Shown here one piece after another: positions 11,318 through 39,740 of a stretch of 40,486 nt of DNA. A model generated the notes under the pieces. That model was not told the origin of the DNA. It worked only from the letters and a program-made list of their open reading frames with translations, and made no database searches. Source of the stretch: a virus (lineage: Duplodnaviria > Heunggongvirae > Uroviricota > Caudoviricetes); IMG/VR virus record IMGVR_UViG_2563366903_000009, positions 1 through 40,486 of that record; one strand, written 5' to 3'. The translations under genes were made by a program, and so were the position numbers. Every line of letters begins with the position of its first letter. Within the stretch, counting starts at the first letter, position 1.

Positions 11318-11451
11318 CTTTGTCACTTATTGACATCACGTATAGTTATAGGGCGACATAATATCATCAATATAAACACCCTCCTTGAACGTTTTGCGTT
11401 CGCAGTGGATGGTGTAGAATCAGCTTTAATCATTCATACAGGGAATGAATT

Positions 11452-11793: not shown

Positions 11794-11827
11794 CCTGTTA
11801 TTGATTTAAGGAATGTAAGGACACGTT

Positions 11828-12388: not shown

Positions 12389-12390
12389 TA

Positions 12391-13101: not shown

Positions 13102-13205
13102 AACAGTCACCTGAGAGTAGAGATGATTCTCAATCATAGTAGCAAATACAGTACTTTACACGTTAAATGCTATGCTTAAAGAAGTTATCTTCGCGTAAGG
13201 AGCTT

Positions 13206-13514: not shown

Positions 13515-13599
13515 CACATTATCGACTGAACGCCGGATACGACACATCCGGCGATTTGAACATACAACATAATCCCACCTTATTACTCATACCCTTCTA

Positions 13600-13613
13600 T
13601 TGATATGGATTAA
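13600..13613. promoter_or_regulatory. Candidate FNR-type site upstream of ynfE
   Basis: TTGATatggATTAA, one mismatch from TTGAT-N4-ATCAA, about 100 bp upstream of the ynfE ATG. Confidence 0.3.
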
Positions 13614-13712
13614 TAATTATTAACCCCAAATGGGTAGACTCCCTCTATTGTTAGCGCGCTAAATATTCAATATATAAACATTTATATAACGATAAAAAAC
13701 AGGGAGTGAGTT

Positions 13713-16138: not shown

Positions 16139-16195
16139 CCCACTACGACCATAAATTTTGACATGACATTTTGTTTGAAAAGCAATAAGTGAGTA

Positions 16196-18997: not shown

Positions 18998-19151
18998 ATG
19001 CCTGTTTACAGGTATCGCCATATCAATGGCGGGTCGAGAGAGCCTAATACAATACCCTTTCGGGAAATACGCTCCGCCGTCTGACGCGGTAGTTGAAGCC
19101 CGCCACCCCACTAAGGTGGCAGTCAATACTAAAACGTCAGGAGTCATAATT

Positions 19152-19891: not shown

Positions 19892-20041
19892 ATGTCCATT
19901 TTTCAGATATGGTCGGGTAGCGCGTATACCGAAAAACAGCCGTAAGGCTAAGGATGCGGGCCGAACTTTCGACGGTGTTCAAGTACCCGACCGCCCTGCT
20001 GAACACGGGGTGATCTGAACGAATCGAAAGGACATAAAACT

Positions 20042-25900: not shown

Positions 25901-28900
25901 GTATGAATTGCAACAATGACAGGATTCCCTTTTGTATCGGTCGCCTGAATTAAAGATACCAACGCATCCGATTCAGTTTTCGAACGCATAACTGCTACCG
26001 GATCTGTCAGAAGTTGAGGCAAATCAGCCAGTGTTTCCACTGACACAAAGTGTTCTCTGATCTCTGGTCTCGTAGCCTTATGCACAACAGATGCAGGCAT
26101 AACCAGTTCAAGATCTGGTGCCCCCAATGCGCGCAAAACACGAGGCGTATCCCCAACTCTGAGCATTTCCCTTCTGGAAACCGATTGTAATCCGGCAATG
26201 CGACGCACTTCTGAAGCAAACTGCTTTGCATCATAGGCGTCAGCCTTAAACGGATCAGGTTTACCACTACGGGAGTACTGAGACGATGCGCCCGCGCCAT
26301 CCTCACGCGGCGTGTAACCTTCCCGCACACGCTGGCCTAACGTACGGATGGTCTCGCGAACAAGTCTGATATCGTTCAGTTCCGTCGGCTTCAGTAACCC
26401 CGTACGACGCAGTACCCCTTTGACCAGGGCAACAACACGCTCCCATGCCGCCACGAATTTATTCGGCTGTTTCTCCGCCATATGTGCCAGAAATTCACCC
26501 GCCTGCACTTCCGGTGATTCCTTACCATAGGACGCATCAACCTTACGCCAGGCTTCACGGATGGTGGCGTTATCACTGTCGCGGGTTTTCAGCACGGTTT
26601 TGATGATCGTCTGATATTCCGCTGGCGTGACAACATGCTCCATGGCATGGTGGATAATCTCGTGACGCAACTTCTCGCGTACGGTCCGCCCGTCAGGGAT
26701 GTTATCCGCCACCAGGACAATTTCACGTTTATCCGGACGATAGAACGCGTGCACCTTGCCGTAACCGTCGAATGATTCACCCGCCAGTGCTTCAGCCTCT
26801 TTCTGTGACTTCACCACGCGGACCTTCAGGTCACTGTCCTTAATGCCACTAATCACGCCACGGGCAACCGCTTCAACCTGCGGGACCGGGCTGCCTTTGG
26901 CTTCCGCACTGCGGTTAACATCCGAAATGAGATTGCCTTCAGGTGTGCGGGTCACGCCCTTACGGGAATAAAACGCAACGCCCTTGTCCGTCTCACGGGT
27001 TTTCAGGGTGCGGAACAGGTGATCGAATGCCTCACGAATGCCACCATCCAGTTCCGCATTCGTCGGATAAGCGTAGGTGTTATCTGTGTTGTGCTCAGGT
27101 GCCTTACGGATATTGACCAGATAATCATTCTCCACGCCAGCCGTACGCGCCTTATCCTGAACATAACGCTCAAAGGCACGTGCCGCCATTTCAACATCCG
27201 TTGACCAGTACGGTTTTGAGCGCACCTCATCGAGAAGAGCTGAACGACGCGGCATGTCACTGTTTTTAATGGCCTCAATGACACCTTTAAACGCGTCGTA
27301 AACCTCCTGACGCACCGGATATTCAGCGTCAACAAACCTGCCGTCTTTAAATACGCGCTTAACACGCCTGGCTTCCGTCATAAAGTCACCACCTGACGTA
27401 ATCTTCCCGTCAGTGGAAACATCATAACGACCAAAATAATTATCCAGTGAATGGAACCATTCGTGCGCCAGCGCACCCGGTCCGTTACCTTTTGTCAGGT
27501 TGATTGCCACCTCACCCGGCTCATAGTGTGCTGCCGCCTTACCCTTACCACGGGCACCAAATGCCAGGCCAAGACGACCGTTCAGGGAAAGCGCTTTTGT
27601 CGGTACATTCAGTACTTCAGCAAGGTCATGCAGCGAGTCATAAGCCCGGTTCAAATCAGCCTGACGACGCGGACCTTCCACGTAGTTACCAAACTGCACA
27701 CCACGAAAACCAAACGCATCGCTGAACTGCTTCGGTGAGACATCACCCTTGCGGCGTTCTGGCCCGGTACGATCGCGGTTGGTGGCGTTACGCTGCTCCT
27801 CACGGGAAATCTCACGCATCTCCTTCACATGACGAACAAGCTCATCACGATGTGAATCAATGTACTTACGCGCATCACTGGCTGACTTAAAGCCACCTCT
27901 CACCCGCATTTTGTTTTTGCCGTAAGCAATAAAAATATCGCCACTGCGGGTATTCCGGTATACGTCAAAGCTGATTTTGTCATCCGGTGACGGTGCTGTT
28001 TTTTCATCACCTTTCGCCTGTGATTTTTCCTCCTGCTCTGCAAACCAGGATTTTGCCTTTGTCAGTAATTCATCCCTGCTTTCCGAGAAAAAGAGATTGC
28101 TCCCCTTATTGTCCTTATTGCGCAGTGAATAAAGTTTCCGTGGCGGATCGTAACGTTTCCCTCCTGCCGCCTGATACACACCGGATACCACCCGATAAGC
28201 AGAAGCCTTGTCTATCTGCGAGGGTGGCAGCGTGCGTAACAGTTGCCATGTGTCCGCGTAACGGGCGGGCATTCTGCCTTCCATCCACTCAGCAAGCCGT
28301 CCGGCAGTCACTTTTCCTTCCAGCATTCCCGCCACACTTGTGCGGATGCTCTTTACACTCTCCACCCACTTCACTGCATTGAGTTTCGTCTTCGCCGGAA
28401 TATCGCTACGATACAGCGCTATCATTGCCAGGGTATCAGCATCGGCACCTTCGTTCGCCAGTTTTGCGTAGTCCGGTTTCGGGAACAGTTTGCTCAGCGG
28501 TTGCGTGACATAATCCCTGTCTTCCAGCGTTTTACCCAGTGTTTCGGCAAGCTGTGCATAACGGTGTTTTGCCGCGCCCTTAATCTCCTCGCCAAAGTCT
28601 TCAATTTTTGCACCACGCGCCTGCTGGTGAGTGCTCGGTTTATCTACCGGCACCGGCACCGGCACCTCAGTATCCGGAACATCGGTTATGGTCTGGCGAT
28701 TATCCCCGGTCTGTCTGCGCGCTTCTGCCTGCTGTGCCAGTTCCGGAAGGGAGTCACGAACCATACGAGGGAGTGATTCAGGATGTGGCATATCAACCCC
28801 ACGCTGTTCAGGTGCAGGAAGTCCTTCACGCACTGGTGCTGTGGCGTTCTGCTCATCCGGTGACGGCAGACCACGACGAACCGGTTCGCTCTCCAGTATT

Positions 28901-31299
28901 TCCCCCTGGCGACCAGCGGCATTTTCCGGTGCCTGCGCACGTCCTTTCTGGAAACTCTGGCCCTTCACCTCACCGGTTGTGGTAAAACGACCACCACGTC
29001 CGGCCTGATTTTCATCCGGCGTACGCGCCACTTCTCCTGGTAACGGATATCCCTGTCCGGGATGAATATCGCCGGGAGCGGGAAGGCGTGGACGCTCAGT
29101 TAACTCCTGTGCTGTCGGACCGGCATCACCTTCAGCCATCTGTGAACGTACAAGCTCCTCTGCCGTCGGCGCGTTGCCACGGGCAAGGCGGGCCTGCACT
29201 TCTGTATCATCCCCCGTGAAACCACGGAATCGCGGGTCACGCATGAACGCGGGCTGCTCCATCGGTTCAGCATCAGCAATACGCTCTCCGTCAGCCAGGG
29301 TGTTAATGGTCTCCGTTGCCACATCTTCAGAGAACGCAGGATTATCCATTTCAACGGCATACTGATTCTCGCCTTTCTTCACTACGGACGGTTTCAGGCC
29401 GGTGGCGCTGGCATTGCGGAAAACATCGCTCCCCAGAGCACTTTTTTCATCCGTGAAATAACGGTTGTCCGGACGCACCTTTTCAATGCGTTCTGCTGGT
29501 CTGGACGCACCACTCCCGTTAATTTCAATACGAACTTCATCCGGATCGCGGAACCGCACCGTCGGGTAAATACTCCCGTCGCCATCATCCGCATTTTCCG
29601 GCTGTGGCTGTGCCTCCGGTCTGGCCTCCTGCTGAGGGCGAAGCACATCACGGATAGCCCGTAACTGCTGCTCTTCAGTATCAGTACGCCCTTCCTTCAG
29701 GCTGAGTTTTCGGTATTCCTCAAGCAGTTCAGGGCGCGGCTTCGCCTTCAGCTCATCCATCACCGCCTGTCGCTTCGCCTGTTCATCCAGTTCATTTAAC
29801 AGCTGGCTGGCGGCTTCCCGGCGATGAACGGCAGACGTGTCTCCCTCAGGTGCCATATCCGCATCAGCATACTGTTCCAGAAGTTGCTCGCGATTCATGC
29901 CCTGCATGGATTCGCGATGCTGTGCCACCGGATCAGCCGGTTCGGGTTGCGGGGCTGCTTCACCCTGCTGTACGACTTCAGCCTCACGCATGGCGGTTTC
30001 TTCTGCGGCCTGACGTTTTCCACGATATCCGGCAACCGCACCGAACGGTGCGCCCATCGCTGCACCAAGAGCGGCTCCTTCGATCGTTGCGTCAGCTACC
30101 CCCTCCCATGGTGATACATCCATTCCGGCAGTCTCACGCAACGTCATATTTTCCTGGTAACGCGAATAGCCGCCCTGCGCCGCATTAATCGTCCCCTGTT
30201 CCGTGGCATTTCTGACAATGCCGCTTTTAACGGTCTTCGCCGTGCCCCGCATCGCCAGATTAAACAACTGAGCATCGCCCAGTTTTGCCGCCATGGCATT
30301 CACAGCCAGCAATTCAGGATCGGTTGCCAGCTGCGCGCGCACCTCATCGGCAACACGCTCTTTTGCCAGATCCATTTTCTGGCGATCAGTAAGCTGTGCG
30401 TGCTGCGGATCTGCATCAATTGACAAAAACGTCTGCTGAAATTTCGGGGACTTCGCCAGCTCAGAGTAATCCGCGTTAAGAACAGAGTCTGCTGCTGCCA
30501 TTGCACTCTGCCCCTGTGCGCTGGCTGAGGAATGGGTGATCAGGCCTGCCTGGAATAAATCCGGCATTTTTTTATCGACAGCTTCTGCTGCCAGTGCGGT
30601 AGCTCTTTCCGGCTGCATCCCTGCCGCAATGTATTTTTTCTCCAGCCCGGCGGTCAGCACTTTTCGCAGAGTGACTTCACCCAGCTTTTTAGTCACACCG
30701 CCTGCAACCAGATCAGGTACAAGCGCACCAATCAGGTTTACACCCTTCGTCAGCAAGACCGCAGAATCATCATAGCCTTCACTCATTGGCGTGTTCAGCG
30801 CACGAACAGCACCCGGCGACATCTGATCTGTCAGCCATTCATCCGAGGCTTTGGCACCATCACTGACTGCCTTGCCTGTGGCCTTCAGACCTTTACCGAC
30901 AGTATCAGTCACCGCGTTTTTCCCTGTTCCATCGGGAATGTTTTTAATCGCATCTCCAACAGAAGGTGGTGCGCCCAGTTCCTTTTGCGTGGAGGAAGGC
31001 GGCATGTAAACATCCGTCATGAAAGACGACAACCCGGCAAGCGTTTTTACAGGATTATTTACAAGTGCATCACCGAGTCCACGGGCCATTTCCCCTGTTC
31101 CCCGGACGGACTGGGCGAAACCTTTACCCATTGTTGGCAATACATCGCCCAGGCTGAACGACGTGCTGTGATCAACAGCGTTCTCCGGGTTGTTGAAAAA
31201 ATCCTGCCAGTAATTTTCTCCCGGCTGCTTAATGTTCAGACTGCTGCGGTTCTGGTTACCCAATTGCGCTTCAGGGCGCTGCTCATCTGAAAAAGCCAT
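22924..31299 (-). CDS. Giant 2,791-aa protein with two HExxH zincin-like motifs; candidate virion-packaged polyvalent protein
   Basis: Single uninterrupted ORF with RBS GGAG before the ATG; HEWFH at aa 1279-1283 (27451-27465) and HEIIH at aa 1546-1550 (26650-26664); acidic/Pro-rich low-complexity region at about aa 430-850; last gene of the minus-strand block. All plus-strand ORFs inside it are antisense artefacts. Confidence 0.8.
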   Translation of the reverse strand: MAFSDEQRPEAQLGNQNRSSLNIKQPGENYWQDFFNNPENAVDHSTSFSLGDVLPTMGKGFAQSVRGTGEMARGLGDALVNNPVKTLAGLSSFMTDVYMPPSSTQKELGAPPSVGDAIKNIPDGTGKNAVTDTVGKGLKATGKAVSDGAKASDEWLTDQMSPGAVRALNTPMSEGYDDSAVLLTKGVNLIGALVPDLVAGGVTKKLGEVTLRKVLTAGLEKKYIAAGMQPERATALAAEAVDKKMPDLFQAGLITHSSASAQGQSAMAAADSVLNADYSELAKSPKFQQTFLSIDADPQHAQLTDRQKMDLAKERVADEVRAQLATDPELLAVNAMAAKLGDAQLFNLAMRGTAKTVKSGIVRNATEQGTINAAQGGYSRYQENMTLRETAGMDVSPWEGVADATIEGAALGAAMGAPFGAVAGYRGKRQAAEETAMREAEVVQQGEAAPQPEPADPVAQHRESMQGMNREQLLEQYADADMAPEGDTSAVHRREAASQLLNELDEQAKRQAVMDELKAKPRPELLEEYRKLSLKEGRTDTEEQQLRAIRDVLRPQQEARPEAQPQPENADDGDGSIYPTVRFRDPDEVRIEINGSGASRPAERIEKVRPDNRYFTDEKSALGSDVFRNASATGLKPSVVKKGENQYAVEMDNPAFSEDVATETINTLADGERIADAEPMEQPAFMRDPRFRGFTGDDTEVQARLARGNAPTAEELVRSQMAEGDAGPTAQELTERPRLPAPGDIHPGQGYPLPGEVARTPDENQAGRGGRFTTTGEVKGQSFQKGRAQAPENAAGRQGEILESEPVRRGLPSPDEQNATAPVREGLPAPEQRGVDMPHPESLPRMVRDSLPELAQQAEARRQTGDNRQTITDVPDTEVPVPVPVDKPSTHQQARGAKIEDFGEEIKGAAKHRYAQLAETLGKTLEDRDYVTQPLSKLFPKPDYAKLANEGADADTLAMIALYRSDIPAKTKLNAVKWVESVKSIRTSVAGMLEGKVTAGRLAEWMEGRMPARYADTWQLLRTLPPSQIDKASAYRVVSGVYQAAGGKRYDPPRKLYSLRNKDNKGSNLFFSESRDELLTKAKSWFAEQEEKSQAKGDEKTAPSPDDKISFDVYRNTRSGDIFIAYGKNKMRVRGGFKSASDARKYIDSHRDELVRHVKEMREISREEQRNATNRDRTGPERRKGDVSPKQFSDAFGFRGVQFGNYVEGPRRQADLNRAYDSLHDLAEVLNVPTKALSLNGRLGLAFGARGKGKAAAHYEPGEVAINLTKGNGPGALAHEWFHSLDNYFGRYDVSTDGKITSGGDFMTEARRVKRVFKDGRFVDAEYPVRQEVYDAFKGVIEAIKNSDMPRRSALLDEVRSKPYWSTDVEMAARAFERYVQDKARTAGVENDYLVNIRKAPEHNTDNTYAYPTNAELDGGIREAFDHLFRTLKTRETDKGVAFYSRKGVTRTPEGNLISDVNRSAEAKGSPVPQVEAVARGVISGIKDSDLKVRVVKSQKEAEALAGESFDGYGKVHAFYRPDKREIVLVADNIPDGRTVREKLRHEIIHHAMEHVVTPAEYQTIIKTVLKTRDSDNATIREAWRKVDASYGKESPEVQAGEFLAHMAEKQPNKFVAAWERVVALVKGVLRRTGLLKPTELNDIRLVRETIRTLGQRVREGYTPREDGAGASSQYSRSGKPDPFKADAYDAKQFASEVRRIAGLQSVSRREMLRVGDTPRVLRALGAPDLELVMPASVVHKATRPEIREHFVSVETLADLPQLLTDPVAVMRSKTESDALVSLIQATDTKGNPVIVAIHTHVKGDGFAEINKIASAYGKDKRSALQDQLDTSLLYLNKEKAAEWLHAVGLQLPEANTINGSSGFKILHPEDIRKGPYYSRTSSLTPEETIASRFVRQMQDKFQVLKAVQENIRKTGGKVDDSNNAYMAEELFHGKAENDLNVMKERYVQPLAKLLADYKIAQADLDEYLYARHAPERNAHIAKINPKMPDGGSGMTNAEAAEIMQRVRNSGKQAQYDRLAGIIDDMLARRREIIREAGLEESGVVDAWQKAYRYYVPLKGQDVDGVVSQPRTGKGFTIGGRESKQAMGRASRAQSPSTQAIQDLSESLIRNRKNEVGNAFLKLVQDNPDKDYWQVFTDDRPDTMRVIAERKDQETGETIREVVERPVPMAMMADRYFTTKKDGKTYYIKLHDPRLMRAMKNMGPETSNAVIRTLGKVNRFLATVNTSYNPEFLVSNFIRDVQTAVMNLKAEQGRSDGKLKGLDNLSALAVVKDSRSAMSAVYASLRGKTLTGKGAQWQKVWKEFVEDGGKTGWFNMGDLEGQQKEMDRLVSLAKGGWKGQSIGAWNSFLNLVEDANGAVENALRLSAYKHARDAGLSRQQAASLAKNMTVNFNRRGEQGALMNSLYMFANASIQGTANLVRTLGHLNGDGPLPERLRWKNLNVPQKIALAAVGAGYLLGSLNRSVAGEDDDGVNWYDKVPSHVKERNLVIMKSVFGGKAGEYWSIPLPYGYNVFFLLGHTAEGVAAGDLTASRAAGNVVGGILGAFSPVGSETSETLSGALLKNAAPTILRPFANLAMNENFMGAQIYQENMPFGTPKPDSQLGRRSTPEAYKAFASWLNAFSGGSQYRPGAVDITPESLKFWIDYISGGTGRFISKTTDAAVKSLNGIDIPEQQVPFLGKISGEVMPYADQQKMYDRMTEVAQYHAELKSLTGAERTAFIDENNGKLSMNGLMQDTRKRLKDLRKQRDAIYADSTLSLAQQSAMVKSVERDMKIAVDRFNREYNKKVGVD

Positions 31300-31311: not shown

Positions 31312-31338
31312 AAAAAAAGCCCGACACGATGGTCGGGC
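31312..31338 (-). terminator. Intrinsic terminator between the 420-aa gene and the giant gene
   Basis: Minus-strand GCCCGAC catcgt GTCGGGC followed by TTTTTTT (plus-strand A-run 31312-31318), only about 15 nt before the giant ORF RBS. Confidence 0.7.
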
Positions 31339-31383: not shown

Positions 31384-32646
31384 TTACTTCATCCAGCCTT
31401 TGATCTTCTCGGCAGATGCGGAAGCGCTATAATCCAGCGCCTTTTCATGCTCTGCCTTTTTATCCCTGAGGTGATTCTGGTAATAAATTTCCACCTCCTT
31501 TTCACGACCAGGTTCCAGCAAAGCAGGCATATTGGCGGCAGTCGCTTTTACAAACTCCTGTTTAACCGGATCGCCCGCCGCCCACGTCTGCCACTTCTGT
31601 AAAAGCTGTTGGGTTTTCTGTTGCTGAATTTTCTGTTGATGCGGTTGTGAACCAGTCGCAGCATAATATTCATCCACCGCAGCCTGTGCATTACCGCCAT
31701 TCTTGATCGCGTCCGCCGCTACGTTGCTGGCCCCCTTCTGAAGCTCTTTCAGAGAAAGTCCCTGCTGCTTCGGCATAAAATAACCATAATTTTTCGATAT
31801 CTCTGCAAATTTGCTGCGATCCCTGACCTGAGCGATAGCCTTATCAACGGGTATCGCCAGCACGGTTTGATCATCAGGGTGCGCACTGCCGTATTCTGTT
31901 ACAGGTTTATGCGCGGTGGAGCCATCGCTGTATGTGAGATCAAGGCCAATAAGTACGTACCCTTCCTGCTGCGCCGGTACGATACTGCCAATCCTGGCCT
32001 CTTTTATCGTTTTTTCCCCGGTTGAATCAGGCATGCCAATACGCTGTTGTAGTTCCGGGGCAAACACGCCGGAAAGCACATCGAGATTTTCCGGGGTATT
32101 CAGCGAAGCAATCGCCCTGTCCGGCTTATCATCAAAGATTTTCTGCAGGTTGTTCACGGCCTGACCCGCTTTCGCAGCATAGCCTACCGTTGACATCATC
32201 TTAAGCGGATTGGCGTCCGATAATTTACCGAACAGATGAGAAGCCGCATCATGGTCACCCGCATCAATCGCTTTTCCCAGCGCCGCCATCACAGGCTGAT
32301 CGCGCGCCAGCATATCGTTATACTCAAGCCGTCGCTGGTTGTATTTCTGCAACTGGAGTCGTTGCTGTTCCATCCCCAGCGACGCATTCCGGTAATTCTG
32401 GTTGGCGTTAAACTCCCTTTCCTGCAGTGTGTAATTGCGGTCATCAACTTTGGCTCTGTAATCAAAGTTCCGCTGATCAACGTCTTTATTATGTTCAAAC
32501 TGAGACTGCGCAAATTCAAAATCGCGCTCGTTATTTTTCTGTTGCTGAGCAAGCTGTGCTTCTCGCAAACCAAGCTCCTTACGACGGGTCATTGCCTGGT
32601 CAACAGTGCTGAATCCGGCAAGTAACCCCTGTGCAAATCCGCTCAT
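31384..32646 (-). CDS. Hypothetical 420-aa protein, Gln/Asn-rich with coiled-coil-like segments (possible virion internal protein)
   Basis: Complete ORF in the same operon orientation; no motif recognised. Confidence 0.55.
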   Translation of the reverse strand: MSGFAQGLLAGFSTVDQAMTRRKELGLREAQLAQQQKNNERDFEFAQSQFEHNKDVDQRNFDYRAKVDDRNYTLQEREFNANQNYRNASLGMEQQRLQLQKYNQRRLEYNDMLARDQPVMAALGKAIDAGDHDAASHLFGKLSDANPLKMMSTVGYAAKAGQAVNNLQKIFDDKPDRAIASLNTPENLDVLSGVFAPELQQRIGMPDSTGEKTIKEARIGSIVPAQQEGYVLIGLDLTYSDGSTAHKPVTEYGSAHPDDQTVLAIPVDKAIAQVRDRSKFAEISKNYGYFMPKQQGLSLKELQKGASNVAADAIKNGGNAQAAVDEYYAATGSQPHQQKIQQQKTQQLLQKWQTWAAGDPVKQEFVKATAANMPALLEPGREKEVEIYYQNHLRDKKAEHEKALDYSASASAEKIKGWMK

Positions 32647-32656
32647 TCACCACTCC

Positions 32657-32908
32657 TTAAAACAAAGAACCAGCAATGCCGCCAATTACTGCACCAGCAA
32701 CAGCGCCAACAGGACCACCAACGGATGCGCCAATAGCCGCCCCCGTACCAATGCCCGTACCGATATTCTGCTTGTTCTGCGCTTTCTGCTGCGCCGCCAT
32801 CTGTTTGTTCGCAGCCTCAATTTCTTCACGTCGTCGGTCTGCGTCACTTATTCCCTGTAATGCCTCACGCCGTGACTGATTCGCAATATCCAGTAAACCG
32901 TATCCCAT
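32657..32908 (-). CDS. Small glycine-zipper membrane protein (83 aa)
   Basis: C-terminal GTGIGTGAAIGASVGGPVGAVAGAVIGGIAGSLF; polar N-terminal half. Confidence 0.55.
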   Translation of the reverse strand: MGYGLLDIANQSRREALQGISDADRRREEIEAANKQMAAQQKAQNKQNIGTGIGTGAAIGASVGGPVGAVAGAVIGGIAGSLF

Positions 32909-32917
32909 ATTTCCTCC

Positions 32918-33370
32918 TTACGCTGACACCAGTTGTCCGCCAACACTCAGTTGCTGTCTTGCAGGTGCAGAAGCCCCCGTCAGTATGTTCATCTGACGAT
33001 CCTGCTCTGCTTCACGGATACCATTTTTCGCGCCAGCAATTGCCAGGGCATTACGTAACCCCAGCGTATTACTGTTGGGATTATCAGGTCGGTTAACGCC
33101 ATATCGTGCCATCTGGTTATCCTGCGCCATCTGCGCTGTACGGAGACTGGAAGTGGCAAGGCCGCCCACCCGGGCAAGCTGTGCATTCATCAGGCTGTTG
33201 TTCTCGCCAAGGTCAGCCAGCCTTGCTACACGGGGTAAATATCTGGTGCGCCAGTCGTCGTATTGCTGGCGGGTCAGCGCTGCGGATGTCTGCCAGTCCC
33301 CCTGAGGGCGGGCTGCTCCGGTATAACCGTATCTCGCAAGTGTTTCGTATTTACCGTACTCCATAATCAC
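32918..33370 (-). CDS. Hypothetical 150-aa protein
   Basis: ATGA-coupled to the upstream 218-aa ORF (33367-33370). Confidence 0.5.
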   Translation of the reverse strand: MIMEYGKYETLARYGYTGAARPQGDWQTSAALTRQQYDDWRTRYLPRVARLADLGENNSLMNAQLARVGGLATSSLRTAQMAQDNQMARYGVNRPDNPNSNTLGLRNALAIAGAKNGIREAEQDRQMNILTGASAPARQQLSVGGQLVSA

Positions 33371-34023
33371 AGTCTCCAGTTCTGAGCCTGATGCTGAATG
33401 GCATTAGCGCCGGTGCCAGGTGTTTTAGCACCGCCACTTCCTCCGCTACCACCAGCCTTATGCATCGCATATGCACCTACCGCACCCAAACCAGCGCCAA
33501 CAAGAGAGGCTCGCCCCTGCTGTTTCGTAAACGCCGCCTGTGCATCCGATTTGGCTTTTGCCAGACTGCTGTCAGCCAGGGAGTTAAAACTCTGTAACGC
33601 ATCTGCCTTCTGACCGGAACCGAGAGCCGCAACATCCTGTAGCCCGGCAATATATTTATCTGCCTGCGATACCTGCCCCCGTGTGGTCGTGTCAATCTGC
33701 CCGATCACCTGGTCGCTTTGATTTGCATCCATTACTGCATTAAAACGACCACTGGATGGGTCAACGCCGGACTGAGCAAGATTACCCGCCAGCTCCCTTC
33801 GCGCTTCACCAAACTGTTTCTGATACCCAAGATTTGTTGTGCCTGCGATATTTTCGTACTGCTGCTCACTGTTAAGGTCATCGACCTTTTTCATGAAGTT
33901 ATCTTCTGCCGGACGGAGAATATTTTTGTAATCCTGCCACCCTTTCCAGGCCACCTCTTCCTGTGCTATTTGCGCTGCTGTTGGTTTTACTTTGGTATCA
34001 CCACCACCTTTACTTCCGCCCAT
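33367..34023 (-). CDS. Hypothetical 218-aa protein with Gly-rich termini
   Basis: MGGSKGGGDTKVK... and ...GGSGGSGGAKTPGTGANA; RBS-like GGAGC upstream. Confidence 0.5.
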   Translation of the reverse strand: MGGSKGGGDTKVKPTAAQIAQEEVAWKGWQDYKNILRPAEDNFMKKVDDLNSEQQYENIAGTTNLGYQKQFGEARRELAGNLAQSGVDPSSGRFNAVMDANQSDQVIGQIDTTTRGQVSQADKYIAGLQDVAALGSGQKADALQSFNSLADSSLAKAKSDAQAAFTKQQGRASLVGAGLGAVGAYAMHKAGGSGGSGGAKTPGTGANAIQHQAQNWRL

Positions 34024-34116
34024 AATGGCTCCTCAGATAACAAAAAACCCTGCCGGAGCAGGGTCAGAATGTGAATTGCAATGTGGGTTTACGCTCGATG
34101 ATGAATACAGTGGCAG

Positions 34117-34494
34117 TCAGACCGCTATCCTGAACACCATGAAGCCATCCTCATCATCCGGCATTCGCTCAAAGCCCAGACGTTTTCCCAGCCGGATAAA
34201 TCCCCGCCTTGCCGTGTGGAATTCAGCCCAGCGTCCGCCAGCCAGACGGGTTAATGTCTTCACCTCCGGCAGATAACGCTCAACACCGGCACACCCCGTA
34301 CACACACCCAGCAACACCAGAACATAAGGGATACCGTCGTCACTGAGCACAGAACGCAGCACCAGAAAACCATCCGGTGCCTCAAAGCAAAACGCCTGCT
34401 TTTTAAGGCAGGCGTCTTTAACTTCATTCATAAATTCAGGGTTGCGGGAATTTCTCACAACACGCTGCATATACCGGAGAATTCTGTCGTCCAT
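34117..34494 (-). CDS. Hypothetical 125-aa protein
   Basis: Start chosen at MDDRIL (GGTGAG RBS) inside track ORF 34117-34518. Confidence 0.45.
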   Translation of the reverse strand: MDDRILRYMQRVVRNSRNPEFMNEVKDACLKKQAFCFEAPDGFLVLRSVLSDDGIPYVLVLLGVCTGCAGVERYLPEVKTLTRLAGGRWAEFHTARRGFIRLGKRLGFERMPDDEDGFMVFRIAV

Positions 34495-34574
34495 TCTCTC
34501 ACCTGAAACGGGTGCCATATCGGCTGAACCTCAGCAACCAGTTGACGGGGACTTTCGTCCCCGTCGCGGTTTTC

Positions 34575-34715
34575 CTACTGCTTACACTGTAAGAACGCCG
34601 CAAACTCCGCTCCCCACAAATTCAGCCGGAACTCACACAACGAGCCGTGTAACATCCAGATGGTGAAGATTACCGTCATACAAATTGTGACGGTGATGAG
34701 CGATTTTTGCGACAT
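34575..34715 (-). CDS. Hok/Gef-family type I toxin-like small membrane peptide (46 aa)
   Basis: Hand translation MSQKSLITVTICMTVIFTIWMLHGSLCEFRLNLWGAEFAAFLQCKQ*; N-terminal TM plus SLCE-x-R...E-x-AAF motif characteristic of Hok/Gef; AGGAGG 8 nt upstream of ATG (34730-34725). Below the 60-aa track cutoff. Stable hairpin GACGGGGAC tttc GTCCCCGTC (34544-34565) just past the stop. Confidence 0.65.
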   Translation of the reverse strand: MSQKSLITVTICMTVIFTIWMLHGSLCEFRLNLWGAEFAAFLQCKQ

Positions 34716-34898
34716 AGCGCTTGCCTCCTGAGTGGAGAGGCGCTAACCTTCTACTTGCTTAAGGTATGATGGTTAGGGCCTCGGGTTAAACAAAATGTTT
34801 GACTCGGGGCCTTTCCACATCAGGCCTTCAGGTTCACCTTCCAGCCATCAGCCGAAAGGCACCCGCGCATAATCTACGATTTTTGCCCTGCACGGGCA

Positions 34899-34925
34899 AC
34901 AAAAAACCCGCCATCACAGCGGGTT
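34899..34925 (-). terminator. Intrinsic terminator after the Lom-family gene
   Basis: Minus-strand AACCCGC tgtgatg GCGGGTT followed by TTTTGTTG, 22 bp after the stop codon. Confidence 0.65.
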
Positions 34926-34947
34926 ATGACATGTTGTCGGATACAGA

Positions 34948-35679
34948 TCAGAATTTCAGGCCAATACCTACAACAACCCCGCTCGTGCGCCAGTCACCAG
35001 ATCCGGAGCTTTCATAAGTGACGTCCATAGCAACACTTTCATTCAGGTTAAATTGTGCACCAGCAGCCCATGCAAGTGCTGTTTTTTTCGTACTGTTGCT
35101 TTCAGAAAATCCACCGGTACTGTTAATGTTGTCCTTAATTTTCAGGTCAGCGGTAACTTTAGCTACGCCCATACCAGCCATTGCATACACACTGAGGTAT
35201 TCGTTAAACCGCCACGAAGGACCCGCTAACAGGCTCCAGTAATTCGCTCTGATATCTGTTCTTCCTGAAGCTGCCGGATTTTTAACCTCTCTGGATTCAT
35301 CTCCTGGGTTAACATCAATAAATGCCTGCGCATTAGTCATAGAACGCGCCCATGTAAAAGATGTTATAACACCAATCTCATCCGTTATCTCATAACGATA
35401 CCTGATGCTCATCCCCTGAGGAGATTTGCCTTTGCCATCATGCCCCCGGACAGAAGCATCTGCATATTCGCCTGAATTGAAGTAGTGTCTGTTTGTAAAA
35501 CGGTTAAAAGTATCAAGATTATAAAGACTTAAATCCTTAACAAAATTGTTCAGTCCAGAGAGCTGAAGATGAGCGTATTCGAAAGAAACTGTACTGTCAC
35601 CTTGTGCTGCACAGGCAGGGGCTGCTACAAAACTCATCACAAAAGTTGTGCACGCAAAAATAATTCTGGTATGTTTCAT
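34948..35679 (-). CDS. lom: Ail/Lom/OmpX-family outer-membrane beta-barrel protein (moron)
   Basis: Signal peptide MKHTRIIFACTTFVMSFVAAPACA, alternating beta-strand pattern, C-terminal ...VGIGLKF; AT-rich upstream region and own terminator. Confidence 0.8.
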   Translation of the reverse strand: MKHTRIIFACTTFVMSFVAAPACAAQGDSTVSFEYAHLQLSGLNNFVKDLSLYNLDTFNRFTNRHYFNSGEYADASVRGHDGKGKSPQGMSIRYRYEITDEIGVITSFTWARSMTNAQAFIDVNPGDESREVKNPAASGRTDIRANYWSLLAGPSWRFNEYLSVYAMAGMGVAKVTADLKIKDNINSTGGFSESNSTKKTALAWAAGAQFNLNESVAMDVTYESSGSGDWRTSGVVVGIGLKF

Positions 35680-35765
35680 TTTTAGACTTTTCCTATAATA
35701 AAATAACCCCGTATTATCTAAGATGAATTTAGTTTTATTACTTAATATTCATACTGACAGGCATA

Positions 35766-36392
35766 TCAGTTATACATTGATGAATTAATGACCAACACTT
35801 TATCTATATACGGCTTCCGAATATCCCATGTTGCACGACCGGAATAATGCTCACAGGAATATATTTTATTTCCTGTAGCACCAGTGGATGTGGTGTAAAT
35901 CGGTCGGTCATAAGGTGTTCGTTTCCAGTTATAATATCCAACCAGTGCAGGCATAATTGCGCATGGATATCCAAGGTCCTTCTCAAACTTGATATCAACT
36001 GGTATTAACTTCGCGTCAAGCAGCATCATTTCGCCATGGTAAATCATCTCACCCGACGGGTTATACATGGCGATACCATACTCAGAAGGTTGAGTAACCA
36101 TATTCGCAAAAGCATAAACAGTCGTAACACCGGGATTCGTTCCCCTGACAATTTGATGAAGCCTTAAGGCATGATATCCATCAATTTGTTCATGCGTGTA
36201 CATAACATCGGCCTTTTTCTCTGTTCTGATAAAGAAAAAACAACTTTTTCCTGACGGGATTGACGTTTTAAAAAAAGCCTTCTCAGTCGCCGGAATAGTT
36301 CCCTTATTGATCAGACACTGAGGCGTAAACCCCGGGCTTATCCACAAGCTGCCATCTGGTTTCGTAATGCTTAAACCATACATACAACTCAC
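35766..36392 (-). CDS. Hypothetical 208-aa protein between the tail protein and the Lom-family gene
   Basis: ATGA-coupled to the upstream 93-aa ORF; N-terminus YGLSITKPDGSLWISPGF loosely resembles the partner's YGFAIYNRNNVNVTGVL. Confidence 0.5.
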   Translation of the reverse strand: MSCMYGLSITKPDGSLWISPGFTPQCLINKGTIPATEKAFFKTSIPSGKSCFFFIRTEKKADVMYTHEQIDGYHALRLHQIVRGTNPGVTTVYAFANMVTQPSEYGIAMYNPSGEMIYHGEMMLLDAKLIPVDIKFEKDLGYPCAIMPALVGYYNWKRTPYDRPIYTTSTGATGNKIYSCEHYSGRATWDIRKPYIDKVLVINSSMYN

Positions 36393-36670
36393 CCCCAGAA
36401 TGTATAAATATATGACCCCATCCCCTGCTCAAGATTCGACCATGTCACCGTATTGCCATTAATGGTTATCTTCGGTACTTTCCGGTCCTTAAATACATTA
36501 TTCCACGGAAATAATGAACAGACTGCCTGTAATGTTTTCCCTTCTGGTTTATTCGTATACGTTTTTGATCCCGACTCCGCCGTAAACCTGTCCAGGAAAA
36601 ATATGGGAGTAAGCACGCCCGTAACATTAACATTGTTTCTGTTGTATATTGCAAAACCATATTCTGCCAA
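36389..36670 (-). CDS. Hypothetical 93-aa protein
   Basis: Follows the J-like gene after 14 bp; coupled to the downstream 208-aa ORF. Confidence 0.45.
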   Translation of the reverse strand: MAEYGFAIYNRNNVNVTGVLTPIFFLDRFTAESGSKTYTNKPEGKTLQAVCSLFPWNNVFKDRKVPKITINGNTVTWSNLEQGMGSYIYTFWG

Positions 36671-36684: not shown

Positions 36685-37962
36685 TCAGCTTAACCTGCCT
36701 ATGCGAACAGCCAGGCGTCCGTTCTGGTCATAAACTTCAATTTTATCATTGCGGATCACCAGCCCAACATTCTGATTAGAGTAACGAATTGTCAGTTGCC
36801 CCTGCGACGTAACACTAAAAAGGCCACCAATATTCAGGTTACCCTGAGAATCAACCTGAAAGTTCCCGTTCTGAATAACAGCACTCCGGATAACAGGCGA
36901 CGTGATACTTACCCCGGCTTTTACTTCATCTGCCACAACCTTCCGCGACACCAGTGTTTCAATCACCGCGTCATAAATCATCGCTTTGGGAATAACAACT
37001 TTTCCACCAGAGACCGCAAACGGATAGGCGGTGTTATCCGGATTATTCGGGTCAAAGACAAACAGCTGTGACGCAGAAATTGCAACCTGGCTTACCGGCT
37101 TCCCTTCACCATCTTTTCCTGCAACAATTCCGATCCCCGCAGTAATTCCCTCAACACCGGTCTTTTTTGACCACATGGCCAGGAAAGCTTCACCGCCTTC
37201 TTTATCCACCTTAGTGATGCGCTCATTTACCTTATTAAGCTCTTCACTGGTTGACTTATTCATCCCCGTAACACGGGTATCAATACCACCGATAGTTTTC
37301 AGTGTTTCTTCCCTGAGATTACCCACAACTTCCGTCGTCTCGATTGCCGCGTCCTTTACTGCCTGCCCCTGAGCATTCTTTATTTCCTTACGCAGCTCTT
37401 CCACCACCGGTGACTTTGCAGCCTCCTCCTTGATCTGGTCAATAATGGCCTGAACGCTTATCTGGGTTTGTGCGGGAGTGCCTTTTACCGCGTTCCATGG
37501 CCCTTTCACTCCCGCTGCATTAACAAAGCGTATCCAGTAGAATCCCGACCAGCCCGGATCAACCGGATCAACCGGATCACCGTAAACCTGCCCCGGCGTC
37601 GTGGCAACCAGCACCGCATCCGAAAGGTCATCCTCCGTACCCCGCCAGATTTCAGTCAGTGAATGACCGCGATAATTCGGCATATCCCATTCAAGCAGTA
37701 CCGAGCCAAATCCCCCTGTAGCCTTAAAATTCTGCGGCTTCGATGGGAAATCAACGACCATCAGGGAACTGTCAATCTCGATCCCCGGATTCAGGGCGTA
37801 TGCGGCACCTCCTGAAGCCCGGCGACGGGCAAGCTTCAGACCGACCAGCTCTTCACGGGTTACAAAAGCATGACGACCATCGCCACGTTGTCCTGTCCCT
37901 ATCTCCATATTTTCCACAACCGCAGATAAATCCTTTCCTGCGCGCCACGGTTTTTTTGTCAT
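36685..37962 (-). CDS. Tail fiber / host-specificity protein, lambda J C-terminal-like
   Basis: Segment ...AMWSKKTGVEGITAGIGIVAGKDGEGKPVSQVAISASQLFVFDPNNPDNTAYPFAVSGG... parallels the lambda J region ...[52 protein letters not shown]... (recalled); fibronectin-III-like stretch upstream. Confidence 0.6.
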   Translation of the reverse strand: MTKKPWRAGKDLSAVVENMEIGTGQRGDGRHAFVTREELVGLKLARRRASGGAAYALNPGIEIDSSLMVVDFPSKPQNFKATGGFGSVLLEWDMPNYRGHSLTEIWRGTEDDLSDAVLVATTPGQVYGDPVDPVDPGWSGFYWIRFVNAAGVKGPWNAVKGTPAQTQISVQAIIDQIKEEAAKSPVVEELRKEIKNAQGQAVKDAAIETTEVVGNLREETLKTIGGIDTRVTGMNKSTSEELNKVNERITKVDKEGGEAFLAMWSKKTGVEGITAGIGIVAGKDGEGKPVSQVAISASQLFVFDPNNPDNTAYPFAVSGGKVVIPKAMIYDAVIETLVSRKVVADEVKAGVSITSPVIRSAVIQNGNFQVDSQGNLNIGGLFSVTSQGQLTIRYSNQNVGLVIRNDKIEVYDQNGRLAVRIGRLS

Positions 37963-39584
37963 ACCGGCAGCTCCGACATCGATGTACTGAGTGTGATACG
38001 TTCAACCTGACCAAAACCAGAAACCAGCATCTGCCAGTTTTGCCCGGTTGCAGCAGGTAACCTCACAACGCGTCCTGAAAAGCTTCCTGGTGCAAGGTGA
38101 ATCACCGGCACATCATCAGCCAGCACAGTAATTCCCACCCGCTCTGGCGTCGGAGACTTCACCCTGAGACAGGAAAAAGAGGTTCTTTCCGGAAGGGAAA
38201 ATACCTTTGAATGCCATCTGATTGTCGACGGCAAACTCCCTCCGGCAATCGCAGACATGTTTTGTCCTGATACCACCCGCATAACATCGTTAACCAGGTC
38301 AACACATGCGCAGTCAAACGGCGTACTGAGGTACCGGATATCCATGTTCGCCGGGCTGAAGACAAACACATCCTGCTTACCATCCGGTTTCGTGTAACAG
38401 GCAATGTATTCACCACGCCAGGGATAAGCCACAATGGAGGCCGGATTAAACTGACTCTGCCACTGTTCCGGTGAAATAATCTGTTCCGTCGCCAGAGCGG
38501 CATTACCGTTTGCATCAACAGACACCAGGCCATTTGTTCCTGCATACAGCACAAAGCCCTCCATCGCCACCATACTTCTTCGGCTCAGGCATGCCTGCAT
38601 GGAAGGAATTCTGGAGCCAGAAATTGTGGAAGGCGATACACCACTGAACAGATAAGGCTCACCCTTTGTCGCCACCACCAGTGATGTTCCGAGCGGACAG
38701 ATAGCCACAATATCTTCTGCCGTCGTGTGACGATTCACTTCCGGCCATGCATACGGCAGATACGCTTCCGAAAACATCACTTCATTACCGGCAAATCCGG
38801 CGGCAATACCATTCGCCATCAGGCAAAGGCCTGTCATATTCTCCGGCGGCGGCAGGTAATCCCATGTCGCCAGCGAAGGTCCAAGATTTTTCGCCGGTAT
38901 TTTATCCGTGTAACTGAGCACGGATACATCCAGTTCAGCCACGAGTAAAAAATCGGCTTCTCCTCCCCCTGATGCAGAACGATAAATACGACGACGTTTA
39001 ATACTGGCATTCTGCAATGGCACCGGAGCCAGCGTCAGTTGTACCGCAGTTCCCGGAGTACGGAGTGTTACCTCCAGAGACGCCGGACCTGGCGGACCTT
39101 CTTCACCATAATCTGAGACAAAGGTTTCCGTATAAAACCGGGTTTCATCATCATTCGGGTTATCATCAGAAACATCACCGCCCTGCTGAACAGTACAGAC
39201 AGGAGCTGTCGTCGGCGCGGGGATCCCCAGACGATACGATGATGTCGGGTGATTCCCGTCCCCTTTTGTGGCAATGGTCGCATCCGTCACTTTAGGAAAA
39301 CGCCCGTCAGTGTAGTAAATACGCCCGTGGGGGTCCTGAGCGATCGGACTGCGGATCACATCCACCACATCCGGCCATGCAAACCAGAAATCGTCACGGT
39401 AATGAAAAATTGTTTTTGGCTTAATTGTGAATGTTTTCTCAACCCCGGATATCTGACGTTCTGGTGTAATAACACCAAACCGGAAATGGCAGTCCTCCGC
39501 CAGTACAGCGGAATGCTCGGGCAGCATGGATGTCACAACGCGCGGCATCATCCCACGCATCGTGGTGATATCGATATAGGGCAT
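37959..39584 (-). CDS. Hypothetical tail-associated protein (about 541 aa)
   Basis: ATGA-coupled to the J-like gene; start chosen at MPYIDITTMRG (AAGGA 7 nt upstream) inside track ORF 37959-39662. Confidence 0.5.
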   Translation of the reverse strand: MPYIDITTMRGMMPRVVTSMLPEHSAVLAEDCHFRFGVITPERQISGVEKTFTIKPKTIFHYRDDFWFAWPDVVDVIRSPIAQDPHGRIYYTDGRFPKVTDATIATKGDGNHPTSSYRLGIPAPTTAPVCTVQQGGDVSDDNPNDDETRFYTETFVSDYGEEGPPGPASLEVTLRTPGTAVQLTLAPVPLQNASIKRRRIYRSASGGGEADFLLVAELDVSVLSYTDKIPAKNLGPSLATWDYLPPPENMTGLCLMANGIAAGFAGNEVMFSEAYLPYAWPEVNRHTTAEDIVAICPLGTSLVVATKGEPYLFSGVSPSTISGSRIPSMQACLSRRSMVAMEGFVLYAGTNGLVSVDANGNAALATEQIISPEQWQSQFNPASIVAYPWRGEYIACYTKPDGKQDVFVFSPANMDIRYLSTPFDCACVDLVNDVMRVVSGQNMSAIAGGSLPSTIRWHSKVFSLPERTSFSCLRVKSPTPERVGITVLADDVPVIHLAPGSFSGRVVRLPAATGQNWQMLVSGFGQVERITLSTSMSELPV

Positions 39585-39740
39585 AGAAATTCCTTTGACT
39601 GCTTCAGGCTTAAAAATCAGGGGATTTATGATGGAATTCGCTAAAATCGCGATCGGTATCACTGCAACAGAGTGTTGCTATGATATTCTGGACAAGACGT
39701 AACAACTCACTAATTGTTATCAAACGTCTTTCTTCTGGTC

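Follow-up and report, generated by a model that had tools for sequence, protein, structure and literature searches.

Between the tail genes and a giant open reading frame (ORF) of a prophage on IMG/VR virus record IMGVR_UViG_2563366903_000009 (40,486 nt; this whole stretch of DNA is called the window here) lies a block of five small genes at positions 31,384 to 34,494. What do these genes do? In 186 phage records and hundreds of Escherichia coli genomes they are labelled "hypothetical", "bacteriocin" or "transcription factor?". An initial annotation, made from the letters of the window, proposed that they encode internal virion or ejection proteins. We infer that the block is quite probably the small-protein part of a conserved six-gene DNA-ejection cassette of 933W/phi24B-type podoviruses, and we favor the ejection proposal for its products of 218, 150, 83 and 420 amino acids (aa), but not for the 133/125-aa protein. 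Short-tailed Shiga toxin (Stx) phages spread Shiga toxin genes and bind BamA before their DNA crosses the E. coli envelope; the assignment, if true, would provide gene targets for host range, superinfection exclusion and the blocking of Stx-phage transfer.

A six-gene block conserved in distant loci

All five ORFs were found where the initial annotation had placed them, all on the minus strand and, as it had also stated, ahead of a giant ORF. The six genes, named here by product length, run in the order p133, p218, p150, p83, p420 and giant, with a terminator-like hairpin in each of the two larger gaps:

34117..34518, minus strand: p133, 133 aa (125 aa from Met9 at 34494); PHROG 610; four Cys
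34046..34065, minus strand: terminator-like hairpin with T-run in the p133/p218 gap; 8-bp stem, 5 GC pairs, TTTTGTTATC tail
33367..34023, minus strand: p218, 218 aa; PHROG 611, and PHROG 8003 "virion structural protein" at 8e-9
32918..33370, minus strand: p150, 150 aa from GTG (148 aa from the ATG at 33364, as annotated in relatives); PHROG 596
32657..32908, minus strand: p83, 83 aa; PHROG 594; N-terminal polar helix and C-terminal glycine zipper ending in GSLF
31384..32646, minus strand: p420, 420 aa; PHROG 601; in the gp20/gp15 position
31319..31338, minus strand: terminator-like hairpin with T-run in the p420/giant gap; 7-bp stem, 6 GC pairs, TTTTTTTACT tail
22924..31299, minus strand: giant polyvalent protein, 2791 aa; Pfam LPD5, LPD1, MuF_C and LPD38; last cassette gene, in the position of gp16 or the N4 virion RNA polymerase (vRNAP)

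The Met9 start of p133 coincides with the end of the block as initially delimited, while RefSeq relatives annotate 133 aa. The p218 and p150 genes overlap by 4 nt, gaps of 9 nt (150 to 83) and 10 nt (83 to 420) follow, and the two larger gaps measure 93 nt (133 to 218) and 84 nt (420 to giant). The translational coupling proposed for several genes was therefore retained for the overlapping pair, whereas the others are merely tightly packed, with AGGAG-type ribosome-binding sites. The compositional claims (Gly-rich termini, a glycine zipper and Gln-rich coiled-coil-like regions) were borne out by composition, Pfam and AlphaFold2: p218 contains 13.8% Gly and 10.1% Gln, begins with MGGSKGGG and has a C-terminal GGSGGSGG, p83 contains 18% each of Gly and Ala, and Gln makes up 9.8% of p420.

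Each of the five proteins matched a large PHROG family of unknown function (E 1e-45 to 1e-195), and none of them received an assignment above threshold from Pfam, NCBIfam or PADLOC, whose defence-system models gave no meaningful match. No RNA family of Rfam matched inside the block. The block DNA was 90-96% identical to 186 phage records, nearly all of Stx-converting or Sepvirinae phages, and up to 99.4% identical to prophages of E. coli chromosomes; it was carried by 425 of 5426 complete E. coli genomes. In view of the PHROG matches, these records and genomes, and the same-order homologues in distant loci described below, the five ORFs are real genes, not chance ORFs.

The prophage is a podovirus of the 933W/Sp5/phi24B type (Sepvirinae), not a lambda-like siphovirus. 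The initial annotation had remarked that the block stands where lambdoid phages usually carry side tail fibre genes; for such podoviruses the lambda layout is therefore the wrong comparison, and the cassette is normal at that position. The lambda-like position, with a J-like tail-tip gene and lom upstream, would imply that the block encodes side tail fibres or fibre-assembly chaperones. We regard this as scarcely credible, since no similarity to fibres or chaperones was found in Pfam, PHROGs, NCBIfam or PDB, the lateral fibre genes of this phage type are placed upstream of the cassette, and the predicted structures are helical rather than beta-rich.

To examine conservation, the neighbourhoods of seven distant p420 relatives and of two phages found via the 218-aa protein were inspected. 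The same order of p133, p218, p150, p83, p420 and giant was found in eight other neighbourhoods (Aeromonas and Vibrio phages, an Stx phage, and five genome or metagenome contigs), and the homology of every positional counterpart was significant. Product lengths along the longer loci, in aa and in gene order, were as follows:

L003/L004: 119-210-126-79-466-2103
L005: 131-207-115-80-503-2022
L098: 127-202-126-77-467-2467
L099: 103-225-124-80-554->4206; the giant ORF runs off the locus (9856-17665)
Vibrio phage D80 (L012): 131-201-117-77-[HNH]-467-3066
Aeromonas phage phiARM81mr: 119-212-124-85-466-(1.9-kb gap)-giant

The short contigs L096 and L097 showed the same gene order. Where a contig was long enough, the nozzle and needle/tail-tip genes came first, then the homologues of p133, p218, p150, p83 and p420, then a giant ORF; in all six loci listed above, the cassette starts directly after the needle gene. 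Homologues of p133 take first place in every cassette. Giant homologues of 2022 to >4206 aa, with differing LPD or InPase domains, follow every p420 homologue where the contig extends. In Vibrio phage D80, the p83-like and p420-like genes are separated by an HNH homing-endonuclease gene (L012 15224-16015) of opposite orientation.

Orthologues in Sp5 and in phi24B virions

The four smallest window proteins are 94-100% identical to their orthologues in phi24B and VT2-Sakai (Sp5), the 420-aa protein 82% and the giant 88%, and published experiments on those phages therefore apply here. The initial annotation called the products uncharacterised; the small proteins are indeed still "hypothetical", but deletions in Sp5 and mass spectrometry of phi24B virions bear on them. 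By size and order, the Sp5 ORFs of Mondal et al. (2016, PMC5155283; ECs1237-1242) were matched to the window genes p133 (ORF75, 133 aa), p218 (ORF76, 218 aa), p150 (ORF77, 148 aa), p83 (ORF78, 83 aa), p420 (ORF79, 421 aa) and giant (ORF80, 2793 aa). Both ORF79 and ORF80 are essential, for plaques as well as for lysogens, and complementable, and their deletion particles contain normal DNase-resistant DNA. Deletion of ORF76 was leaky, with infectivity markedly reduced yet present, and ORF75, ORF77 and ORF78 fall outside the nine essential genes. A requirement for infectivity and not for packaging was thus found for p420 and the giant, in part for p218, and not for p150, p83 or p133.

The results for phi24B come from the available parts of a preprint and its supplement (bioRxiv 10.64898/2026.04.10.717836), in which vb_24B_43-48 are named gp52-gp47; statements on phi24B below are limited to these parts. 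In purified virions, total peptide-spectrum matches (PSMs) reached 10962 for the giant gp47, 1634 for gp48 (p420), 523 for gp51 (p218), 129 for gp50 (p150; 83 of them in column EA1833) and 13 for the p83 orthologue. The absence of all five products from virions, which the initial annotation had named as evidence to the contrary, was accordingly not observed, with three of them abundant. The gel peak of gp48 was in slice EA1815, beside that of the capsid protein (EA1816). After length normalisation of the counts of column EA1833 and scaling to a portal of 12 copies, approximately 37 copies of gp48, 32 of gp51, 48 of gp50 and 23 of gp47 were estimated; these are order-of-magnitude values only, because the reference proteins land within roughly 1-5-fold of their true values. 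According to the part of the report available for P22, this phage injects about 12 copies of gp7, 12 of gp16 and 30 of gp20 (PMC8402733).

Only gp47 is discussed in the available preprint text, as a proposed ejection protein, and gp48, gp50 and gp51 are not named there. Cryo-electron microscopy (cryo-EM), whose dataset included about 36,000 emptied particles, resolved a tail made of portal, two adaptor rings, nozzle, needle and lateral fibres, and no density was assigned to gp47, gp48, gp50 or gp51. The proteomics sheet labels gp48 "Transcription factor?", and gp48 may be one of the proteins that were set aside as contaminants. The seeming source of this label is the GenBank note of vb_24B_47 (L094 7853-9118), [quoted passage not shown]. 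No functional assignment of the small proteins was found in the literature. An ejection role would account both for an essential Sp5 gene with normal packaging and for the abundant, unexplained virion proteins of phi24B.

The same data can be read in another way. Sp5 particles lacking ORF79 or ORF80 package DNA and are not bound by an antibody against the lateral tail fibre (data not shown in that paper; PMC5155283), and Mondal et al. therefore filed both ORFs under "tail formation". The p420 protein, the giant and perhaps p218 might then be tail-assembly factors that build or stabilise the short tail on the portal vertex, present in virions as components of the tail lumen or a plug, with no conduit formed after ejection. 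In P22, purely internal ejection proteins are not known to affect tail assembly. In the accessible text, the phi24B authors also mention "internal tail contents", which may constrain tail orientation in full particles, and the N-termini of N4 gp52 sit in the tail lumen. We nevertheless consider a tail-assembly role unlikely. The cryo-EM tail inventory leaves these proteins out, as far as it is covered here, the estimated tens of copies and the size of the giant do not fit a tail lumen, and the antibody result could be a knock-on effect of a defective portal vertex. Lack of cysteine, likeness to gp7 and the gp20/gp16-like fusion described below indicate ejection proteins instead.

Cysteine content, likeness to P22 gp7 and the fold of p420

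Analysis of amino acid composition revealed that p218, p150, p83, p420 and the giant contain no Cys in 3662 aa. The homologous sets of the same five proteins were Cys-free in every locus checked, including a giant of 3066 aa. At the family level, there was no Cys in 7,213 residues of the p218 family (33 members) or in 3,081 residues of the p150 family (23 members), and the four Cys in 24,443 residues of the p420 family all fell in two aberrant sequences. The nozzle proteins of the same operons contain 5-9 Cys. Established ejection proteins showed the same pattern, with 0 Cys in 1309 aa of P22 gp7/20/16, 0 in 4294 aa of N4 gp50/51/52 (including the 3500-aa vRNAP) and 0 in 2065 aa of T7 gp15/16; T7 gp14 has one. 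The gene preceding each of these cassettes does encode Cys (four in P22 gp14, three in T7 gp13, four in p133). The absence of Cys as a signature is empirical and comes from our own computation rather than from published criteria; it may serve as a sequence-only marker of injected proteins and, if general, as a cheap annotation filter for them in phage genomes.

The p133 protein was set apart from the other four because it contains Cys, its orthologue is not among the entries covered of the phi24B virion protein table, and its Sp5 orthologue is not among the essential genes. It is probably a non-virion accessory factor. In position, size and Cys content it resembles P22 gp14 and T7 gp13. P22 gp14 ranked second to third for p133 among 86 decoys (E 0.006-0.04), which was not accepted as homology; the similarity to gp14 and gp13 is not significant and only a short YLPE[VI][KR] motif is common to them. 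The p133 family also has a conserved strand-helix-strand pattern (RAFLF..DGF.VL.P...V.V.A....G....RY...V..LAR..GA..L.F.TA.K...R.....GW), which by eye resembles the beta-alpha-beta core of GNAT proteins and is not backed by hidden Markov models (HMMs). A GNAT-like acetyltransferase fold was rejected, as a nine-sequence profile reached a best E of 0.58 against PDB with no GNAT among the matches, and Pfam scans of 9/9 members returned no acetyltransferase family.

Profile and structure-prediction searches against podovirus ejection proteins, suggested by the initial annotation, revealed a partial likeness of p218 and p83 to P22 gp7, whereas p420 remained without a match. The p218 protein consists of a gp7-like N-terminal domain, a helical middle part and a C-terminal glycine-zipper segment (residues 172-186). 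The family profiles were compared with 86 proteins, comprising all P22 coding sequences and the T7 and N4 virion proteins. The results showed that the p218 profile ranks gp7 first of the 86 (hhalign E 0.0026, or 0.0011 over 65 columns with a broader profile), with a score of 27-29.5 against 18-19 for the next best. In hmmsearch with the N-terminal 60 columns of p218, gp7 reached E 0.0013 and the next protein 0.16. Smith-Waterman alignment of gp7 residues 21-80 with the N-termini of 35 p218-family members gave a median z of 6.2 and a maximum of 11.4 against composition-preserving shuffles; the p218 of the window itself reached z 4.4, a score attained by 2/1000 shuffles. The alignment begins at the mature, OpdA-processed gp7 N-terminus, which according to the P22 record arises by the loss of 20 residues, and at the invariant Met-Gly start of p218. 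The gp7 relatives retrieved were 86-100% identical and too close for a useful profile. The AlphaFold2 monomer of p218 consists of helices with no confident fold (predicted local distance difference test, pLDDT, 44.7) and was too poor for a fold search, as might be expected if p218 needs oligomerisation to fold.

Comparison of p150 with the p218 family by hhalign gave E 1.5e-5 to 6.8e-5 over 66-68 columns (reversed control 0.021), and the p218 HMM matched p150-like proteins at ~1e-5, which makes p150 a probable paralogue of the p218 N-terminal half. Neither the p218 profile nor p150 matched N4 gp52. The p83 profile matched the last 18-35 residues of gp7 (within residues 192-229; hhalign probability 91-94%, E 8e-8 to 1.3e-6), and both proteins end with a glycine zipper and GSLF. 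This region is of low complexity, and shuffles gave z 1.7 for the p83 of the window and up to 8.1 for its relatives. The glycine-zipper segments of p83 (residues 50-83) and p218 are candidate membrane elements. Paralogy among p218, p150 and p83 would explain why the ORF76 deletion is leaky and those of ORF77 and ORF78 are silent; an ejection role predicts redundancy among the three proteins, and their paralogy predicts synthetic lethality.

The PGAP label "bacteriocin" of p83, together with glycine-zipper matches to OmpA-like lipoproteins and Bacteriocin_IIc and the adjoining Lom and Hok genes, would fit a different idea, namely that p83 is a membrane toxin or bacteriocin and the block a set of morons or lysogenic-conversion genes that serve the lysogen. 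We consider this very unlikely. All these matches lie below curated cut-offs (Gly-zipper_YMGG, 25.7 bits against 28.9; Bacteriocin_IIc PF10439, 19.7 against 27.1, covering the glycine zipper only), no NCBIfam bacteriocin model matched, and the neighbours are virion genes, with no transporter or immunity genes nearby; a class II bacteriocin was thus rejected for p83. Moreover, the genes are co-oriented and packed in a late structural operon, their order is conserved in Vibrio phage D80 and Aeromonas phage phiARM81mr, which both lack Lom and Hok, no defence model matched, and the orthologous products occur in virions, as judged from the available phi24B data, one of them being essential for infectivity.

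The AlphaFold2 model of p420 (pLDDT 86.5) combines a 126-residue helix (residues 4-129) with a helical bundle, a small beta domain and helices at the C-terminus. Searching 1.84 billion representative proteins yielded 72 relatives, down to 24% identity. On its position, p420 is a candidate periplasmic-tunnel component, and a natural fusion bears on this. The protein P0266 (1386 aa, 0 Cys) is encoded at L007 10001-14161 in a P4-like satellite with integrase, AlpA and primase genes on Pectobacterium chromosome CP195798.1. Its residues 5-356 belong to the p420 family (PHROG 601, 3e-39) and share 29% identity with p420 residues 1-259 (E 2e-17), residues 346-480 match the C-terminal half of a gp20-type family (PHROG 2534, 2e-21), and residues 745-1383 are 36% identical to P22 gp16 (2e-77). 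The p420 N-terminal module thus stands in place of the gp20 N-terminal module, in the same polypeptide as bona fide conduit proteins. The satellite may supply its own ejection protein to helper virions.

Two further leads on p420 were dropped. P0249, an apparent p83-p420 fusion, has an aberrant Cys-containing tail with the look of a frameshift or gene-call artefact and was not used. An N-terminal G[FL]LAG[FI] motif (window 32607-32646, minus strand; within the first 25 residues; 19/53 family members), reminiscent of GGFLAGIG in P22 gp20, was not significant (Smith-Waterman median z 1.4).

The small proteins might instead only recruit, chaperone or organise the giant within the head, as loading factors or an internal scaffold with no channel across the envelope. 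The giant ORF always follows the p420 homologue, the ORF79 and ORF80 deletion phenotypes are alike, and the p420 fold is unrelated to known tunnel proteins, all of which would suit such a role. We judge it improbable in view of the similarity of p218 and p83 to gp7, the glycine-zipper segments, which suggest membrane insertion, and the retention of the small proteins in mature virions at high copy number in the phi24B data available. In addition, P0266 joins the p420 N-terminal part to gp20/gp16-like conduit proteins and not to giant polyvalent domains.

Several observations weigh against an ejection cassette. According to the published Sp5 data (PMC5155283), p150, p83 and p133 are dispensable for plaques on K-12, and the antibody result discussed above also counts here. 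The p83 orthologue was barely detected in phi24B virions and was treated as a contaminant by the authors, and the literature search retrieved no measurement of the expulsion of any cassette protein at infection. The similarities to gp7 are short (about 50-65 N-terminal residues of p218, about 18-35 C-terminal residues of p83), the sequences of the window itself are weakly gp7-like, and the glycine-zipper match is of low complexity. The PHROG HMMs of gp7 (PHROG 598, "DNA ejection") and gp14 matched no cassette protein, PHROG 598 being absent even at E up to 10 in hmmscan of p218, p150 and their relatives, and only parts of p218 and p83 are therefore claimed to be related to gp7, which we read as probable remote relatedness of parts and not as family membership. 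No strongly hydrophobic transmembrane helix was found in p218, p150 or p420. For p420, no fold match was found in PDB or among annotated viral models, and no sequence or fold similarity was detected to P22 gp20, P22 gp16, T7 gp15 or N4 gp51 (with hhalign used for gp20, gp16 and gp51). Sequence and profile searches of PDB with p420, p218 and p133 gave nothing below E 0.04.

Surroundings, proposed mechanism and comparison with known ejection systems

The late genes preceding the cassette are arranged as follows:

37959..39662, minus strand: tail nozzle gene, 567 aa; PHROG 511 at 8e-273; orthologue of phi24B gp57 and Sp5 ORF70; nine Cys
36685..37962, minus strand: central tail needle or tail-tip fibre gene, 425 aa; Pfam Phage_Tail_Tip 1e-10; PHROG 496
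34575..36670, minus strand: inserted morons (93-aa ORF, 208-aa ORF, Lom, Hok/Gef toxin), outside the cassette
34948-35679, minus strand: Lom; Pfam Ail_Lom 2.6e-31
34905-34925, minus strand: terminator-like hairpin with T-run after lom, within the late operon
34575-34715, minus strand: Hok/Gef-family type I toxin ORF, 46 aa (MSQKSLITVTICMTVIFTIWMLHGSLCEFRLNLWGAEFAAFLQCKQ), between lom and the cassette

In the phi24B supplement, the nozzle orthologue is labelled "gp57 nozzle", and the cryo-EM structure, as far as available, identifies it as the tail nozzle; the PHROG 511 name "internal virion protein" is thus misleading for the 567-aa protein. The needle of phi24B is gp56, which departs on ejection (10.64898/2026.04.10.717836). 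Because the cassette starts directly after the needle gene in other loci, the 93-aa and 208-aa ORFs, lom and hok are inserted morons; such genes are absent between needle and cassette in L003, L005, L012, L013, L098 and L099. The 46-aa ORF had been overlooked in the initial annotation. Relatives annotate it as Hok/Gef or MokW-like, and no Sok or Hok RNA family reached the Rfam threshold there. Terminator-like sites numbered 12 in the region against 4.8 expected from shuffles, and the three late-operon hairpins listed (after lom and in the p133/p218 and p420/giant gaps) may serve to tune expression, or Q antitermination may allow readthrough.

The remainder of the window holds the following features:

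19911-20000 and 19028-19112, plus strand: two Rfam sRNA-Xcc1 matches (53 bits at 19028-19112, 67.7 bits at 19911-20000) at the 5' ends of AntA/Bro-type antirepressor genes
13713-18622: two molybdopterin oxidoreductases
12391-13137: UPF0257-family gene
8539-10817: alcohol-dehydrogenase-family and enolase-superfamily genes
7056-8351: integrase of a second lambdoid prophage
4275-6713: RecE-like exonuclease with Rv2179c-like domain, second lambdoid prophage
3570-3621: DicF RNA, second lambdoid prophage

Positions 1-8351 are the end of the second lambdoid prophage, host-like genes follow up to about 18.6 kb, and the sRNA-Xcc1 matches are located in the prophage part beyond the giant ORF. We take the host-like genes at 8539-18622 to be rspB/rspA, ynfC and ynfE/ynfF of E. 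coli. The first molybdopterin oxidoreductase (13713-16138 region; presumably ynfE-like) has 662 aa against 808 aa in its paralogue, and a 225-aa ORF (15461-16138) overlaps its end; the short gene may be a frameshift or pseudogene.

We propose the following mechanism for the cassette. The p218, p150 and p420 proteins and the giant, with a little p83, would be packed inside the T=9 head, apparently in tens of copies and outside the ordered shell. After the needle has bound the receptor and departed, the Cys-free, mostly helical proteins would pass the portal-nozzle channel while extended and fold again within the envelope. The gp7-like N-terminal domains of p218 and p150 might dock on the nozzle and lengthen it, the glycine-zipper helices of the p218 C-terminus and p83 would enter the membrane, and p420, with its helix of ~19 nm, would form a periplasmic tube as the counterpart of P22 gp20 or T7 gp15. 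The giant, which carries hydrophobic or glycine-zipper segments at about residues 180-200, 408-424 and 2443-2465, would take up the position of gp16 or the N4 vRNAP at the inner membrane and bring its enzymatic domains into the cell before the DNA. The p133 protein would remain in the producing cell, where it would serve assembly or loading.

A broader evolutionary reading is offered tentatively, as possible rather than probable. Stx-type podoviruses would have derived a five-component ejectosome from a P22-type gene14-gp7-gp20-gp16 cassette, in which gp7 was duplicated and split into the partly redundant p218, p150 and p83, the gp20 slot was taken by the new-fold p420 with its long helix, and the gp16 slot by a Cys-free polyvalent effector carrier of 2000 to >4200 residues. 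The virion would then be a protein-injection device that delivers megadaltons of enzyme domains before the DNA, and the absence of Cys would be a general, sequence-only marker of tail-threaded proteins.

Ejection proteins as a class are recognised by clustering with tail genes, virion location, a requirement for infectivity and very low sequence conservation, and their genes run from a small gp14-like gene through a mid-size gene to the largest ORF (PMC8954989). The window shows this order, from the needle through p133, p218, p150, p83 and p420 to the giant. The smallest and the largest component of the class also bear membrane-spanning elements, for which the glycine zippers of p83 and p218 and the hydrophobic or glycine-zipper segments of the giant are candidates. 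Presence in the virion outside the shell was found through the phi24B orthologues, 82-100% identical (marginally for p83), within the data available. In the three known systems, the corresponding genes run as follows:

P22: needle gp26, gp14 (151 aa), gp7 (229 aa), gp20 (471 aa), gp16 (609 aa)
T7: nozzle gp12, gp13 (138 aa), gp14 (196 aa), gp15 (747 aa), gp16 (1318 aa)
N4: plug gp53, gp52 (150 aa), gp51 (644 aa), gp50 (3500 aa)

As in P22, the cassette stands directly after the needle gene (with morons between them in the window), product sizes rise from small to large, and a Cys-containing first protein of about 130-150 aa is followed by Cys-free ones. The N-terminus of mature gp7 would correspond to that of p218 and the C-terminal GSLF zipper of gp7 to p83, the natural fusion ties the p420 N-terminal part to gp20- and gp16-like parts, and the ~30 copies of gp20 compare with ~37 roughly estimated for the p420 orthologue from the accessible counts. 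P22 differs in having two small virion proteins where four are seen here, a probable paralogue of gp7-N and a free-standing mini-protein like gp7-C among them; p218 lacks a cleaved propeptide of 20 residues, no homology of p420 to gp20 was detected, and the last protein has 2791 aa with polyvalent LPD and MuF_C domains against 609 aa in gp16.

With T7, the cassette shares the gene order after the nozzle gene and a Cys-containing first protein (gp13, 138 aa) followed by Cys-poor or Cys-free ones (gp14, gp15, gp16), and the proposed division of roles among a pore in the outer membrane, a tunnel through the periplasm and a component that is enzymatic or sits at the inner membrane would be similar. 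No sequence or fold similarity to the T7 proteins was found, in contrast, none of the small proteins revealed a recognisable peptidoglycan hydrolase domain, and no ordered core stack is described for phi24B in the available preprint text (10.64898/2026.04.10.717836). With N4 and DEV, the common features are a T=9 podovirus head, seen for phi24B in the accessible material, with a giant Cys-free protein of ~3000 residues, which is encoded last, after small ejection proteins behind the tail plug gene, and is thought to be threaded through a narrow channel. Unlike in N4, p420, p218 and p150 show no similarity to gp51 or gp52, a polyvalent protein whose MuF_C domain is of metallopeptidase type takes the place of an RNA polymerase as cargo, the phage type is temperate, and there are four small proteins instead of two.

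The genes themselves, some of their phenotypes and the proposal of the giant as an ejection protein were already known, the last from the 2026 preprint as far as available. The Cys census, the similarity to gp7, the p150 paralogy, the P0266 fusion and a p420 without a solved fold homologue are added here. The cassette is best described as a probable ejection cassette with more than the canonical three components, in which some members are probably paralogous, the mid-size protein has a new fold and the giant is polyvalent, and this reading would tie temperate enterobacterial phages to giant-protein injection of the N4 type.

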